DNA of 45,076 nt. Source: Actinomycetes bacterium (GTDB lineage Bacteria > Actinomycetota > Actinomycetes > JACCUZ01). This document shows positions 6,152-43,895 of this stretch, piece by piece. The stretch lies in assembly GCA_035759075.1 (NCBI GenBank), contig DASTVO010000152.1, forward strand, positions 1 to 45,076, in the 5' to 3' direction. Position numbers and translations under genes: made by a program. Below the pieces are notes generated by a model. The model made no database searches. It was given only the letters and a program-made list of their open reading frames with translations, and was not told the origin of the DNA. Position 1 is the stretch's first letter; every line of letters begins with the position of its first letter.

Positions 6152-6225
6152 TGGGCGCAGACGGACTCGAACCGCCGACCCCCTGCTTGTAAGGCAGGTG
6201 CTCTAACCAGCTGAGCTATGCGCCC
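6152..6225 (-). tRNA. tRNA-Val (anticodon TAC)
   Basis: The reverse complement folds as a 74-nt cloverleaf. Acceptor is GGGCGCA/TGCGCCC, anticodon arm is CCTGC-CTTACAA-GCAGG and the T-loop is TTCGAGT. CCA is not encoded. Confidence 0.9.
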
Positions 6226-35885: not shown

Positions 35886-35959
35886 TGGGGCGGCTGGGAC
35901 TCGAACCCAGGACCCAGGGATTATGAGTCCCCTGCTCTAACCGGCTGAGCTACCGCCCC
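35886..35959 (-). tRNA. tRNA-Met (anticodon CAT; elongator-like; Ile-lysidine type not excluded)
   Basis: The reverse complement is a 74-nt cloverleaf. Acceptor is GGGGCGG/CCGCCCC, anticodon arm is GGGGA-CTCATAA-TCCCT and the T-loop is TTCGAGT. The 3' end lies 2 nt from the hydrolase stop codon. Confidence 0.85.
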
Positions 35960-35994: not shown

Positions 35995-36067
35995 CTCCCG
36001 CACCTGGACTCGAACCAGGAACCTACCGGTTAACAGCCGGTTGCTCTGCCAATTGAGCTATGCGGGA
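35995..36067 (-). tRNA. tRNA-Asn (anticodon GTT)
   Basis: The reverse complement is a 73-nt cloverleaf. Acceptor is TCCCGCA/TGCGGGA, anticodon arm is ACCGG-CTGTTAA-CCGGT and the T-loop is TTCGAGT. Confidence 0.9.
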
Positions 36068-39754: not shown

Positions 39755-42583
39755 TCAGAGCGTGCCGATCGCGCGCTCGCGCAGGGCCCGTCGGTGCGCC
39801 TCGAGGGCGACCAGCTCGCCGAAGAGACGGTTGTACTCCGCCACCTGCTCGACCGGGTTCAGCCGCTGGAGCCGGGACTTCACCTCGGCGATCCGTCGTG
39901 TCGCGGCCAGCTCCTCCAGCCGGGCGAGCACCTCTGTCGCGTACCGGGTGAGGCCCTGCTCCTCCGACGGCAGCGCCTCCACCGCGAGCTCGCGCACCAT
40001 CGCGCGCACGGCGTCGTCGGCGGCCTCGTCGCCCACACGCGACACCCAGGCGGCGCCCCCCGTGCCGGCTGCGGCAACACCTCCGGCGGCGCGGACCGCG
40101 TCGCGGACCGAGGAGTACGCGGGGGCGGTGAACACCGAGTCGTCGAGCTCGTCGAAGGTGGCCGCCGCCAGCGCCGGCGCCTGCAGGACGACCTTGAGGC
40201 TGTCCCGCTCCACCCGCAGCGCGGGGTCGTGGGGGTCGGGCGCGGCGGCTCGGGCCGACCGCTCGCCGTTCGCCGGCGCCGCGGCGCCCGGGGCAGGCGT
40301 ACGTCGCGCGGTGCCGCCCGCCTGCGCAACCGCCCGGGCCACCGGCTCGACCTCCATGCCCAGCCAGCCGGCCAGCGTGCGCGCGTACTCCGGACGCAGC
40401 GACTGGTCGCGGATGGAGGCGACCACGGGCGCCGCGGCCTGCAGCGCGGAGACGCGGCCCTCGGGGGTGTCGAGGTCGAACCGGCCGATGGTCGAGCGCA
40501 GGGCGAACTCGAAGAGCGGCACCCGGCGGGCGATCAGGTCGCGGACCGCCGTGTCGCCCTTGTGCTGGCGCAGCTCGCAGGGGTCCATGCCGCTGGGCTC
40601 GACCGCGACGAAGGTCTGCGTGACGAACTTCTGGTCGTCCTGGAACGCCTTGAGCGCGGCGTTCTGGCCCGCCGAGTCGCCGTCGAAGGTGAAGACCACC
40701 TCGCCGCGGAACTCGTTCTGGTCCATCAGCAGCCGGCGCAACACCTTGATGTGCTCGTCGCCGAACGCCGTGCCGCAGGTCGCGATCGCCGTCTCGACGC
40801 CGGCGAGGTGACAGGCCATCACATCGGTGTAGCCCTCGACGACAACGGCCTGCATACGGCGCGCGATCTCGCGCTTGGCGAGGTCGACGCCGTAGAGCAC
40901 GGTCGACTTCTTGTAGATCGGAGTCTCGGGGGTGTTGAGGTACTTCGGCCCCTGGTCGTCGTCGAAGAGCCTGCGGGCGCCGAACCCGATGACCTCGTCG
41001 GACATGTTGCGGATCGGCCAGATCAGCCGGCCCCGGAACCGGTCGTACACGCCGCCACCCTGGCGCTGGCTGACCAGCCCGCCGGCCAGGAGCTCCTGGT
41101 CGGTGAACCGGCGGCCGCGCAGGTGGGTGGTCAGCGCGTCCCAGCCCTGTGGCGCGAACCCGACGCCAAACTTCTCCGCCGCGGCCTGGTCGAAGCCGCG
41201 CTCGGCGAGGAACTGGCGGCCCACCTTGGCGCCCGGGCCGGCGAGCTGTTCGACGAAGAACTCCGCGGCCGCCGTGTGCGCCTCGATCAACCGGGACCGC
41301 TGTCCCTGCTGCCGTCCGGGGGTGACGCCGCCCTCCTCGTAGCGCAGGGTCACGCCGGTGCGGCCGGCGAGGCGCTCGATGGTCTCGGCGAAGGACAGGT
41401 GGTCGATCTTCATGACGAAGGAGATGACGTCGCCGCCTTCCCCGCAGCCGAAGCAGTTCCCCGTGAGGATGTTGTCTTCCAGCACGAAGGCGTGTCCGTG
41501 CTCGACCTCGGCGCAGAAGACTTCCTCGACCCGGTCGCTCGGCTCCACCGACTGCACGACCCACCCGCGACGGGCGAAGGCCTTGTGCTGCGAGGCGAAC
41601 CGGAACCGGTGCTGCTCGAGCAGGAAGAAGTCCTCCGGAAGGCTGTCGTTGACCAGGTGCAGGCGGTGAACCGCGGACGGTTCGCGGCCGGGGAAGCCCT
41701 CGCGGATCTGCGTCGTGATCCCGTACGTGGAAATGCCCAGCCGCGTGCACATGTTGCGGACGAACTCGAGATCGCCTCGATCAGCCGAGTTGAGGATCAC
41801 GGTCCCGTCCTCAGCAACGCAGCCATCTGCCGCGAAGTAGCCGGCGAGCCACCCGAGCAGGTACGCGGCCGACTCGTCGAGGCTCGGCAGGTCCTTGAAG
41901 TACGCCGGGAGCCCGAACGCGAGCGTCCGGTCCGGGTCGGTGTACTGGGCTGTCGGGCTCAGCGGGAACCATTTGAGAAGTGCGTCGTCCTTGCCGGGTG
42001 CGAACATCGCGACGCTGCCTTGTCCGAGCCGCGTGCCGTCCCCATAGGTGAAGCCATGCGCCACCCCGAAGGCCGACAGCGTCGTACGCGCGATCCGCGA
42101 CCGCGGGTACACGTACGCGAGCCGGTCTCCCGTCTTGAGGTGCTTGCTCAGTACCTCGCGTGTCCCCTGCCGGGCCGCGCCGGACCTGACGAACCACCGA
42201 TGCTCATCGGTGGCGTAGATCTCCTTCTTCTGCCGGTTCCGGGTCAGCGTGATCCGCATGAGAGGCATGACGCCATAGGACCGGAACGGGGCTGTGACCC
42301 AGTCGCCGCGGCGGTTGAGCACGCGGTGCTCCGAGCCCGCGAGCTCGGAGATCGGCCGCGGCCCGTCCCAGGTCAGGACGCGGGTCTCGCCCGCCAGGCA
42401 GTGGAAGGACCCGACCGAGGGGCGTACCGAGAAGGACGGGCTCTTCTCGTCGTGGAACGGGCAGAGTCCCTTGAGGTTGCCGCCTCCGGCGGGGCGGAGC
42501 GTCACCACGTCGCCGATCACGTCGGCGATGTCCGCGCGCTCCTTGACGAGGGCGACGTCCTCGTCCCGGATCCGGCCTGCCAC
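39755..42583 (-). CDS. dnaG: DNA primase DnaG, interrupted by an intein
   Basis: 942 aa with a GTG start. The zinc-finger halves CPFHDEKSPSF..SFH and CFGCGEGGDVISF are separated by 315 aa. TOPRIM (EGYTDV, DGDSAG) and the C-terminal DnaB-interaction region are present. Confidence 0.95.
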   Translation of the reverse strand: MAGRIRDEDVALVKERADIADVIGDVVTLRPAGGGNLKGLCPFHDEKSPSFSVRPSVGSFHCLAGETRVLTWDGPRPISELAGSEHRVLNRRGDWVTAPFRSYGVMPLMRITLTRNRQKKEIYATDEHRWFVRSGAARQGTREVLSKHLKTGDRLAYVYPRSRIARTTLSAFGVAHGFTYGDGTRLGQGSVAMFAPGKDDALLKWFPLSPTAQYTDPDRTLAFGLPAYFKDLPSLDESAAYLLGWLAGYFAADGCVAEDGTVILNSADRGDLEFVRNMCTRLGISTYGITTQIREGFPGREPSAVHRLHLVNDSLPEDFFLLEQHRFRFASQHKAFARRGWVVQSVEPSDRVEEVFCAEVEHGHAFVLEDNILTGNCFGCGEGGDVISFVMKIDHLSFAETIERLAGRTGVTLRYEEGGVTPGRQQGQRSRLIEAHTAAAEFFVEQLAGPGAKVGRQFLAERGFDQAAAEKFGVGFAPQGWDALTTHLRGRRFTDQELLAGGLVSQRQGGGVYDRFRGRLIWPIRNMSDEVIGFGARRLFDDDQGPKYLNTPETPIYKKSTVLYGVDLAKREIARRMQAVVVEGYTDVMACHLAGVETAIATCGTAFGDEHIKVLRRLLMDQNEFRGEVVFTFDGDSAGQNAALKAFQDDQKFVTQTFVAVEPSGMDPCELRQHKGDTAVRDLIARRVPLFEFALRSTIGRFDLDTPEGRVSALQAAAPVVASIRDQSLRPEYARTLAGWLGMEVEPVARAVAQAGGTARRTPAPGAAAPANGERSARAAAPDPHDPALRVERDSLKVVLQAPALAAATFDELDDSVFTAPAYSSVRDAVRAAGGVAAAGTGGAAWVSRVGDEAADDAVRAMVRELAVEALPSEEQGLTRYATEVLARLEELAATRRIAEVKSRLQRLNPVEQVAEYNRLFGELVALEAHRRALRERAIGTL
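41456..42400 (-). mobile_element. Intein (315 aa) with LAGLIDADG homing-endonuclease domain inside dnaG
   Basis: Block A is CLAGETRVL, block B is ATDEHRWF, and the LAGLIDADG motifs are HGFTYGDGT and LAGYFAADG. Blocks F/G are VFCAEVEHGHAFVLEDNILTGN, followed by the +1 Cys. Removing aa 62-376 restores the canonical FHCFGCGEGGD. Confidence 0.85.
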
Positions 42584-42665
42584 GGTCGCGCAGTCTACGT
42601 GCGCCGGGCGAAGCGCCCGCCCGCCTCACCCACAGCCGGGCCGCCTGGTCCGGGCTGTGGTGGGG

Positions 42666-43895
42666 CTAGGGGGTCGGGAGCGGGGTGCCGGGGTCGGCGA
42701 GGGCGGCGGGGTCCACCTCGGCGCGTACGCGGGCGAGCGCCTTGATCGCGTCGGCGGCGTCCCAGTCGTTGACGTTCATGCCGGCCAGCACCCGGCCCTC
42801 GCGCAGCCAGAACGCGCACCACTGCTCCCCCGAGGGGTCGCCGCGCAGCACGACCTGGTCGGCCCCGTCCCGGTCGACGTAGCCGTGGTACTCCATCGAG
42901 ATGTCGTACTGGTCGGTGAAGAAGTACGGCAGCTTCGCGTACGGCTCGCCCTTGCCGGCCATCGACAGCCCGGCCGCCTTGCCCTGGTTGGAGGCGTTCG
43001 CCCAGTGCTCGACCCGCAGTCGCGTGCCGAGCAGTGCGTTCGCCGCGTTCGCGACGTCGCCGGCGGCGAACACGTCGGGGTCCGACGTGCGCAGCATCTC
43101 GTCGACCACGATCCCGTTCTCCACCTCCAGCCCGGCGGTCTCCGCGAGCTGGGTGTTGGGCTTGATGCCGACCCCGACGAGCACCAGGTCGGCGGGGTGG
43201 ACCGTGCCGTCGGAGGTACGGACGCCCGTGACCCTCCCGCCGTCACCCTCGAAGCGGTCGACCCCGAGCCCGGTCCGCAGGTCGACGCCGTGGTCGCGGT
43301 GGCGGGCGGCGAAGATCTCGCCGACCTCGCGGCCGAGCACCGCGTAGAGCGGGGTCGGCTGCGGCTCGACCAGCAGCACGTCGACACCGTGGTGGCGCGC
43401 CGCCGCGGCCACCTCGAGCCCGATCCAGCCGCCCCCGACCACCACGAGGGAGCCGCCGCCCGACGCGAGCCGGTCGCGCAGCGCCTCCGCCTGTCCGAGC
43501 CGACGCAGGTAGCTGATGCCCTCCAGGTCTCCCCCGGCGACGTCCAGCCGGCGCGGCGAGGACCCGGTCGTGAGCAGCAGCCGGTCGTAGCCGAGCCGTT
43601 CGCCACCCGCCAGCTCGACGAGCCGCTTCTCCCGGTGCAGCGCGGTCGCGGCCGCGCCCAGGCGCAGCTCGACCTCGTGGTCCGCGTACCACCCCTCGTC
43701 GTGGACGTAGGCCTTCTCGCGACCCTTCTCACCCTTGAGCAGCTCCTTGGACAGCGGCGGCCGCTCGTAGGGCCGCTCCCGCTCGTCCCCCACGAGCACC
43801 ACGCGACCGTCGAAGCCGGCGTCGCGCAGAGCCTCCGCGGCCTTGGCACCCGCCAGGCTCGCGCCGACGATCACGTACGCGGTCTCCGCTGCCAT
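42666..43895 (-). CDS. FAD-dependent NAD(P)H oxidoreductase (ferredoxin-reductase family)
   Basis: 409 aa. The FAD dinucleotide fold is VIVGASLAGAKAAEAL, followed by ERPPLSK. The second Rossmann motif is VVVGGGWIGLEVAA, and GDVA is also present. Confidence 0.9.
   Translation of the reverse strand: MAAETAYVIVGASLAGAKAAEALRDAGFDGRVVLVGDERERPYERPPLSKELLKGEKGREKAYVHDEGWYADHEVELRLGAAATALHREKRLVELAGGERLGYDRLLLTTGSSPRRLDVAGGDLEGISYLRRLGQAEALRDRLASGGGSLVVVGGGWIGLEVAAAARHHGVDVLLVEPQPTPLYAVLGREVGEIFAARHRDHGVDLRTGLGVDRFEGDGGRVTGVRTSDGTVHPADLVLVGVGIKPNTQLAETAGLEVENGIVVDEMLRTSDPDVFAAGDVANAANALLGTRLRVEHWANASNQGKAAGLSMAGKGEPYAKLPYFFTDQYDISMEYHGYVDRDGADQVVLRGDPSGEQWCAFWLREGRVLAGMNVNDWDAADAIKALARVRAEVDPAALADPGTPLPTP

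Follow-up and report, generated by a model that had tools for sequence, protein, structure and literature searches.

A 45,076-nucleotide stretch of DNA from an Actinomycetes bacterium (assembly GCA_035759075.1, contig DASTVO010000152.1, positions 1 to 45,076; hereafter the window) was found to carry a dnaG gene with an in-frame insert of 315 codons. The gene lies in the order DUF218 - dGTPase (dgt) - pyridine-nucleotide oxidoreductase - dnaG - sigma-70, and its 942-residue product has the CHC2 zinc ribbon, the core with its Toprim domain and the DnaB-binding domains of a bacterial DnaG primase (Pfam Zn_ribbon_DnaG, DNAG_N, Toprim, DnaB_bind and DnaG_DnaB_bind). The precursor scored 371 bits against the dnaG equivalog model TIGR01391, for which the cut-off is 283.6. 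It is an essential single-copy housekeeping gene in a normal chromosomal context; no identical record for the 942-residue protein was found by exact sequence look-up. The initial annotation, which was made from the sequence alone, had read the insert as a full-size LAGLIDADG intein, and this reading was borne out by the fold of the insert, its catalytic residues, orthologues with an empty site and a patchy distribution. The insert is predicted, with the help of a structural model, to be a bifunctional intein in which a HINT splicing domain is interrupted by a two-motif LAGLIDADG homing endonuclease. The coordinates of its parts are collected in Table 1.

Excision of residues 62-376 from the 942-residue precursor left a protein of 627 amino acids, as the initial annotation had stated; the open reading frame (ORF) and the coordinates given there were exact to the base. 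The translation of the insert begins CLAGETRVL, ends EDNILTGN and is followed by CFGCGEGGD, and the junction in the excised protein reads ...CPFHDEKSPSFSVRPSVGSFH/CFGCGEGGD (here and below a solidus marks a junction). On the precursor the Pfam Zn_ribbon_DnaG match was split into two pieces (94.5 bits); on the spliced sequence it was one contiguous match (residues 7-101, profile positions 3-96 of 98, 107 bits). Bacillus stearothermophilus DnaG's zinc-binding domain (PDB 1d0q) aligned to both flanks and broke between its His60 and Cys61, with the first flank stopping at ...IFH-C(61)F and the second opening at C61-F-G-C64. These two results confirmed that excision restores the CHC2 zinc finger. 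From the 1d0q alignment the zinc-ligand pattern of the spliced primase was read as C41-x2-H44-x17-C62-x2-C65 and, since DnaG zinc is bound by three Cys and one His (PMC6163395), Cys+1 is the third zinc ligand, as had been proposed. The insertion point is therefore between His61 and Cys62, immediately before the third ligand of the CHC2 zinc ribbon.

Comparison with intein-less DnaG proteins, the check that the initial annotation had called for, gave the same junction. Among the 120 closest DnaG proteins, whose exteins are 64-98% identical, the insert was present in only five, and the 115 intein-less orthologues have the consensus ...VGS[FWY]H/CFGC... across the site. Removal of the in-frame insertion, which these orthologues lack, restores the host sequence. 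Two loci share the synteny of the window (DUF218-dgt-oxidoreductase-dnaG-sigma70): an intein-less allele with an 89% identical extein (L163) and an occupied allele with 97.7% nucleotide identity (L164). The syntenic empty-site DNA matched the joined flanks of the window at 82 of 90 nucleotides, with the 945-bp insert placed exactly between the His and Cys codons; the empty site of L163 reads ...GGGTCCTGGCAC/TGTTTCGGGTGCGGAGAA.... Evidence of this kind for the junction, from an orthologue consensus and from a syntenic empty allele, is far beyond chance.

Table 1. Features of the intein-containing dnaG gene in the window (positions are those of the window).
Feature	Position	Strand	Evidence or remarks
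dnaG precursor ORF (N-extein, intein and C-extein)	39755..42583	minus	942 amino acids plus stop, GTG start
N-extein (residues 1-61), first half of the CHC2 zinc ribbon	42401..42583	minus	aligns to 1d0q residues 5-62
Zinc ligand Cys41 (N-extein)	42461-42463	minus	
Zinc ligand His44 (N-extein)	42452-42454	minus	
Intein, 315 amino acids (precursor residues 62-376)	41456..42400	minus	excision, family conservation, model, empty sites
Block A, CLAGETRVLTWDG, nucleophile Cys1	42362..42400	minus	Cys1 in 72/72, 81/81 and 126/127 members
Block B, KKEIYATDEHRWFV: Thr64 (B:7), His67 (B:10), Trp69 (B:12)	42188..42229	minus	all three invariant in the family
Predicted LAGLIDADG homing-endonuclease domain, intein residues ~105-275	41576..42088	minus	Pfam, Foldseek, profile match to PI-PfuI 1dq3
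LAGLIDADG motif 1, VAHGFTYGDGT, intein residues 113-123, catalytic Asp121	42032..42064	minus	in model helix 110-121
LAGLIDADG motif 2, WLAGYFAADG, intein residues 184-193, catalytic Asp192	41822..41851	minus	in model helix 178-192
Block F, EVFCAEVEHGHAFVLE: Cys296 (F:4; 41513-41515), His303 (F:13), Phe305 (F:15)	41477..41524	minus	Cys296 invariant
Block G, DNILTGN/C: Thr313 (G:5), Gly314 (G:6), Asn315 (G:7), Cys+1 (G:8)	41453..41476	minus	family conservation
C-extein (residues 377-942)	39755..41455	minus	rest of the zinc-binding domain, primase core, DnaB-binding domains
Third zinc ligand, Cys377 (= Cys+1)	41453-41455	minus	
Fourth zinc ligand, Cys380	41444-41446	minus	

All of the motifs quoted in the initial annotation (Cys1, TDEH, two dodecapeptides, blocks F and G, and Cys+1) were located in the insert, with TDEH at intein residues 64-67 and VFCAEVEHGHAF at residues 294-305. 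The insert thus has the N-terminal Cys, the TxxH motif, the C-terminal Asn and the nucleophilic +1 residue of an intein. Conservation was followed down to 34% identity, in 72 proteins, at 80 loci in genomes and 80 in viruses, and in 126 cluster representatives. In all of these sets Cys1, Thr B:7, His B:10, Trp B:12, Cys F:4 and Asn G:7 were invariant or nearly so. Within block G, the Asn was kept in 72/72, 79/81 and 126/127 members, the Thr in 86-96% and the penultimate Gly in 72-89%; where the penultimate residue was not Gly it was His, Ser or Met. The initial annotation had correctly noted this Gly in place of the usual His but had treated it as an oddity of the window copy, whereas it is the norm in the family. 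A penultimate Gly is compatible with splicing in a class 1 intein of a mycobacteriophage, in which changing that Gly to His causes precursor to accumulate (PMC5050341). The F:13 position, occupied here by His303, has been proposed to assist the C-terminal reaction (PMC2807308).

An AlphaFold2 model of the intein, built on 72 family members, had a mean predicted local distance difference test score (pLDDT) of 96.2 and a predicted template modelling score (pTM) of 0.92. Its best Foldseek matches in the PDB were TliVMA (7qsu), PI-SceI (1vde) and PI-PfuI (1dq3), with E-values of 1e-12 to 1e-10 and template modelling (TM) scores of up to 0.72, and these were followed by the free LAGLIDADG enzyme I-DmoI and then by mini-inteins. 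The HINT fold was recovered in this search through matches that included GyrA, DnaB, DnaE and RecA inteins and the Hedgehog HINT domain. The central part of the insert scored 33.9 bits against Pfam LAGLIDADG_3 (PF14528; cut-off 22.5), and in the model the two helices that bear the motifs each precede strands, as in the alpha-beta-beta-alpha-beta-beta-alpha fold of a monomeric two-motif LAGLIDADG enzyme. In three alignments of family members, Asp121 was kept in 71/72, 80/81 and 126/127 and Asp192 in 72/72, 81/81 and 124/127. A lineage-wide insertion without a HINT domain was ruled out by the HINT fold and by the empty sites in orthologues, and a bacterial intein-like (BIL) domain was ruled out by the C-terminal Asn and Cys+1 of the insert.

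The distribution and divergence of the intein pointed to mobility. Over 74 occupied loci, mean identity to the window copy was 67.5% for the intein and 57.3% for the C-extein, and at the extreme loci it was 65% and 43-45%, respectively. Among the nearest relatives the order was reversed, with inteins 77-80% and exteins 82-86% identical. Since the intein changes more quickly than the gene that carries it and yet, between distant hosts, is the better preserved of the two, it has moved horizontally. Its GC content is 67.8%, compared with 72.8% for the exteins. As far as sequence comparison goes, the best reading is probably active or recently active homing, because the distribution is patchy (five of 120) and the intein is more conserved than the primase across distant actinobacteria. 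A 942-residue DnaG (P0121) whose intein is 98.7% identical to that of the window was missed by a word-indexed search with the intein as query, in which the matches listed were of 540 residues or fewer, and was found with the extein as query, so that absence from the former search is weak evidence.

Relatives of the intein are widespread. In species-representative genomes 368 loci had relatives. The best 80 of these 368 were without exception dnaG genes of Actinomycetota, in which the intein (63-79% identity) occupies the same codon; their hosts included Nocardioides, Marmoricola, Jiangella, Nonomuraea, Glycomyces, Actinopolymorpha and Streptomyces sparsogenes. At least 80 actinobacterial genomes, either named or metagenome-assembled, have this allele at this codon. 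IMG/VR held 187 viral contigs with relatives at 34-50% identity, and when 1.84 billion cluster representatives (clusters at 50% identity) were searched exhaustively without a profile, 1781 relatives were returned at E≤1e-3, of which 713 also passed E≤1e-30. The hosts of the family included other zinc-finger primases, RtcB, class II-like ribonucleotide reductases and terminase-like, DUF5906 helicase-primase-like and PAPS-reductase-like proteins. In 71 of the 126 cluster representatives Cys+1 was the first Cys of a CxxC knuckle (CFGCG, CPFCG, CKLCD, CHGCK and others), and the clade therefore prefers the second knuckle of zinc ribbons, mostly those of primases.

Several members of the wider family had features of their own. 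Cultured-phage genomes contained only remote relatives (27-31% identity), in ribonucleotide reductases, and no close phage donor. Two of these, from Thermobifida phage P318 (L081) and from nrdA of Vibrio phage ICP1 (L082), share Cys1, Cys F:4 and Thr-Gly at G:5-G:6 with the window copy but end in Gln rather than Asn (..LTGQ/C); a Trp-Cys-Thr (WCT) triplet at positions B:12, F:4 and G:5 is complete in P318, and ICP1 has Phe at B:12. A viral ribonucleotide reductase on IMG/VR contig 3300026162_000095 (L095) carries a member of the DnaG-type intein family at ...VQN/C.../CLLLRAEDS and a second, different intein further down, with the extein downstream of 3460 (NAPV/CGSTRVL...VIISN/CTEVSS). In a protein of 581 residues (P0320) the intein starts at residue 173 with Pro in place of Cys1 (...FVHNN/PMSGETRV...) and otherwise keeps T-H-W-C-T-G-N/C; it may be inactive, a natural class-3-like variant or the product of a sequencing error. 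Degenerate C-termini were seen in P0027 (Actinomadura barringtoniae, 328 residues; ILVGA/TGG), whose record describes it as a free-standing 'LAGLIDADG family homing endonuclease', and in P0336 (EDKPETAS/AAA), and both look like decayed or mis-called intein copies.

A literature search found no paper linking an intein to the primase zinc-finger site itself. InBase reportedly has an entry named 'TOPRIM intein / Nsp-JS614', under which name no paper was found. In a census by Novikova et al. (Mol Biol Evol 2016, PMC4760082), DnaG, for which 14 inteins from Actinobacteria and Proteobacteria are counted, ranks among the 15 bacterial proteins richest in inteins. The initial annotation had suggested that the DnaG zinc finger was uncatalogued as an insertion site; this was overstated, since DnaG is a known host and the allele occurs at this codon in the 80 or more genomes given above. 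The element is a new member of a known, widespread intein type, and its penultimate Gly is a clade-wide trait.

A feature overlooked in the initial annotation bears on the splicing class. Alongside Cys1, the intein has Trp69 (B:12), Cys296 (F:4) and Thr313 (G:5), the complete WCT triplet of class 3 inteins; the numbering was checked against the Ssp DnaB alignment and PMC2807308. In every data set the Trp and Cys of the triplet were invariant and the Thr reached the frequency given above, together with Cys1 except in P0320. According to PMC2807308 and PMC5222942, this triplet defines class 3, in which Cys F:4 and not residue 1 starts splicing and is absolutely required. The original definition and that of the 2020 census, in which the absence of Cys1 defines the class (PMC7891396), also demand that position 1 be neither Cys, Ser nor Thr, and here Cys1 is invariant; membership of class 3 by definition was rejected because Cys1 is present. 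The combination of Cys1 with the TxxH motif of block B is that of class 1. In agreement with this, a splicing-domain profile matched the Ssp DnaB mini-intein (1mi8, E 1.6e-5) and the Pho CDC21-1, Npu DnaB and DnaE inteins, all of class 1, and no solved class 3 intein was within E≤10 in that search. The family profile laid aTpeHrWf on ATANHRFL and veeVfCavVpethsF on VEEVFDLTVPGPHNF of the Ssp DnaB mini-intein, in whose alignment block B matches ATANHRF and Cys296 falls on the F:4 Asp.

A class 1 route is favoured, with Cys296 replacing the usual Asp as an essential helper, because Cys1 is invariant, TxxH and Cys+1 are present, the solved structures nearest to it belong to class 1 and a Cys at F:4 is known from class 1 inteins (PMC3196547). 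We take Cys296 to be either this helper or a second thioester carrier within an otherwise class 1 pathway. We infer that splicing and homing occur, as well as the order in which the nucleophiles act: Cys1, helped by Thr64 and His67, would form a thioester at the N-terminal junction, the N-extein would be handed over to Cys+1, Asn315 would cyclise to release the intein, and an S-to-N shift would yield the 627-residue primase, its C41-H44-C62-C65 zinc site intact. Once free, or still within the precursor, the intein would then act as a site-specific endonuclease on intein-less dnaG alleles, into which its own gene would be copied. Taken as a whole, the best explanation of the locus, and one that we consider very probable, is a mobile, self-splicing, bifunctional intein in dnaG that follows the class 1 route with Cys296 as helper or second thioester carrier. 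Its limits are correctly set, every criterion of sequence and structure predicts that it can splice, and it is mobile.

Several observations weigh against this explanation. The curated splicing-domain models scored below their cut-offs, at 24.5 bits for Pfam Intein_splicing (PF14890; cut-off 35.8), 17.7 for TIGR01445 (cut-off 24.5) and 11.8-14.7 for TIGR01443 (cut-off 15.6), and a single-sequence phmmer search of the PDB with the intein gave no relevant match. The hidden Markov model check proposed in the initial annotation was thus passed by the endonuclease domain and not by the splicing domain; the intein lineage is divergent, and its identity rests on fold, motifs and comparative evidence. 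Two typical, although not obligatory, class 1 helpers are also replaced, Asp F:4 by Cys296 and His G:6 by Gly314, but each of these changes is on record in functional class 1 inteins (PMC3196547, PMC4031507, PMC5050341). Finally, a full WCT triplet is otherwise the mark of inteins in which Cys F:4 starts splicing, and the assumed order of nucleophiles may therefore be wrong. Cys296 would in that case make the first or an obligatory attack on the N-terminal junction and form a block F branched thioester before transfer to Cys+1, with Cys1 dispensable or only feeding Cys296 (a Cys1 to Cys296 to Cys+1 relay). The completeness of the triplet throughout the clade suggests such a pathway, as do the intact catalytic residues of P0320 behind its Pro1, the later wording that in class 3 a nucleophile at the N-terminus 'is not required' (PMC5222942) and the 3 of 37 WCT inteins in InBase for which Tori et al. 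(PMC2807308) noted Ser1 or Cys1. We nevertheless regard it as unlikely, while giving it real weight: position 1 is non-nucleophilic in class 3, and, at identities as low as 34%, about 279 of 280 sequences had Cys1; block B is of the class 1 TxxH type and +1 is Cys; the profile found class 1 structures and none of class 3; the 2020 census definition demands that Cys1 be absent; and Cys, the second commonest F:4 residue among inteins overall (PMC4031507), is found there in class 1 inteins as well. That the clade splices by the three-cysteine relay, or obligatorily from Cys296, and so represents a living intermediate between class 1 and class 3, perhaps with zinc capture of Cys+1 also gating primase maturation, seems to us quite improbable; structural work has argued that such an intermediate is improbable (PMC7664689).

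The low scores of the curated models would also suit an inactive remnant or a non-splicing insertion, in which the 315 residues stay in the primase or the gene is a pseudogene with primase supplied from elsewhere. Decayed inteins are known, such as Arth_1007 (PMC3196547), and P0027 and P0336 look like decayed copies within the family. Such a fate is scarcely credible for the window copy, in which the ORF is intact, the nucleophiles and helper residues are all conserved and the endonuclease Asp residues are retained; the insert splits a zinc site of four ligands in an essential gene that has a single copy and a normal chromosomal context, the family model finds one copy only in the window, and a 97.5% identical intein allele from another sample shows no decay. 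A different question is whether splicing is conditional. The precursor has two zinc ligands in the N-extein and two in the C-extein, one of the latter being the splicing nucleophile. The initial annotation had assumed that the zinc ribbon cannot form before splicing. The two ends of an intein lie close together in the HINT fold, however, and the ribbon is therefore not necessarily unable to pre-assemble in the precursor; if it did, zinc would compete for Cys+1. Splicing of the primase could, as proposed in the initial annotation, be gated by zinc or by redox state: zinc might act through capture of Cys+1 in a half-assembled ribbon, and redox state through disulfides among Cys1, Cys296 and Cys+1. 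Such control is plausible by analogy, but speculation: hydrogen peroxide blocks M. smegmatis DnaB intein 1 reversibly, by way of a disulfide in which its F:4 cysteine takes part (PMC6195587), and zinc inhibits the Ssp DnaE intein, according to work cited in PMC4031507. The three Cys residues at the catalytic centre, the two further zinc ligands 18 and 21 residues upstream and the frequency with which Cys+1 opens a CxxC knuckle in the clade are consistent with it. As sequence does not tell regulation from an endonuclease preference for highly conserved DNA, we consider a conditional intein improbable here. The endonuclease preference is the simpler explanation of the insertion site, because related inteins sit equally at non-metal sites (in ribonucleotide reductase, RtcB, terminase-like and PAPS-reductase-like proteins) and 96% of the closest relatives have no intein.

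For annotation, the 942-residue DnaG should be called an intein-containing precursor; public records label its relatives 'CHC2 zinc finger domain-containing protein, partial' or 'LAGLIDADG family homing endonuclease'. The element adds one more intein on a functionally critical residue of a replisome protein and fits the known bias of inteins to such sites. Its main interest lies in the clade-wide signature of Cys1 plus WCT and in the preference for zinc-knuckle sites. In a large, virus-rich clade (1781 clusters) a class 1 N-terminus is invariably combined with the WCT triplet of class 3, and the clade was excluded by definition from the 2020 class 3 census (PMC7891396); if the relay or the start from Cys296 were true, this clade would be a living intermediate between the two classes. 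The zinc-knuckle sites offer a natural system for studying metal-gated splicing, and conditional splicing, if true, would couple primase maturation to metal or oxidative stress.

Other features of the window lie over or near dnaG. An antisense ORF of 983 codons (39794..42745, plus strand) and several ORFs of 100-670 codons overlap the gene in other frames. Their translations are low-complexity and rich in Arg, Pro, Gly and Ala, and they are therefore no genes but the usual artefact of DNA with 73% GC. Three tRNA genes (6152-6225, 35886-35959 and 35995-36067) are all on the minus strand, and two of them are in tandem about 3.7 kb downstream of dnaG, past the sigma-70 gene.

Among known systems, the DnaG inteins of the published census (PMC4760082) share the host protein, COG0358, and the phyla; the main text of that census gives no site, class or motifs by which they could be equated with the window allele. 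The family described here (368 genome loci and 1781 cluster representatives) is far larger than the 14 DnaG inteins of that census. The class 1 inteins PI-SceI, PI-PfuI and TliVMA share the two-domain architecture and fold (TM 0.6-0.72), and also Cys1, TxxH, the C-terminal Asn and Cys+1, but their sequence identity to the DnaG intein is only 11-18%. At 315 residues, compared with 360-454, the DnaG intein is smaller and is therefore predicted to be without their extra DNA-recognition region; it also differs from them in having Cys for Asp at F:4 and Gly for His at G:6.

The Ssp and Npu DnaB mini-inteins (class 1; 1mi8 and 4o1r) are the closest solved splicing domains by profile. Their blocks B and F align with those of the DnaG intein residue for residue (ATxxHR[WF] and VEEVF[CD]..VP..H.F), but unlike it they have Asp at F:4, Phe at B:12, a His-Asn C-terminus, no endonuclease and a helicase host. 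The class 3 inteins of mycobacteriophage Bethlehem DnaB, M. smegmatis DnaBi1 and M. chimaera DnaB1 share Trp B:12, Cys F:4 and Thr G:5 with the DnaG clade, which like them is phage-rich. In contrast to class 3 inteins, the clade has an invariant Cys1, TxxH and Cys+1 and prefers primase zinc knuckles to helicase P-loops, and sequence-profile comparison brought out no similarity to class 3 inteins of solved structure. The Gly at G:6 is shared with the class 1 intein of mycobacteriophage Bethlehem gp51 (RDF), whose G316H mutant accumulates precursor. The Ssp DnaE intein, which has Ala at this position, likewise lacks the His at G:6 but is split. The host proteins and intein lineages of the gp51 and DnaE inteins are unrelated to those of the DnaG intein.

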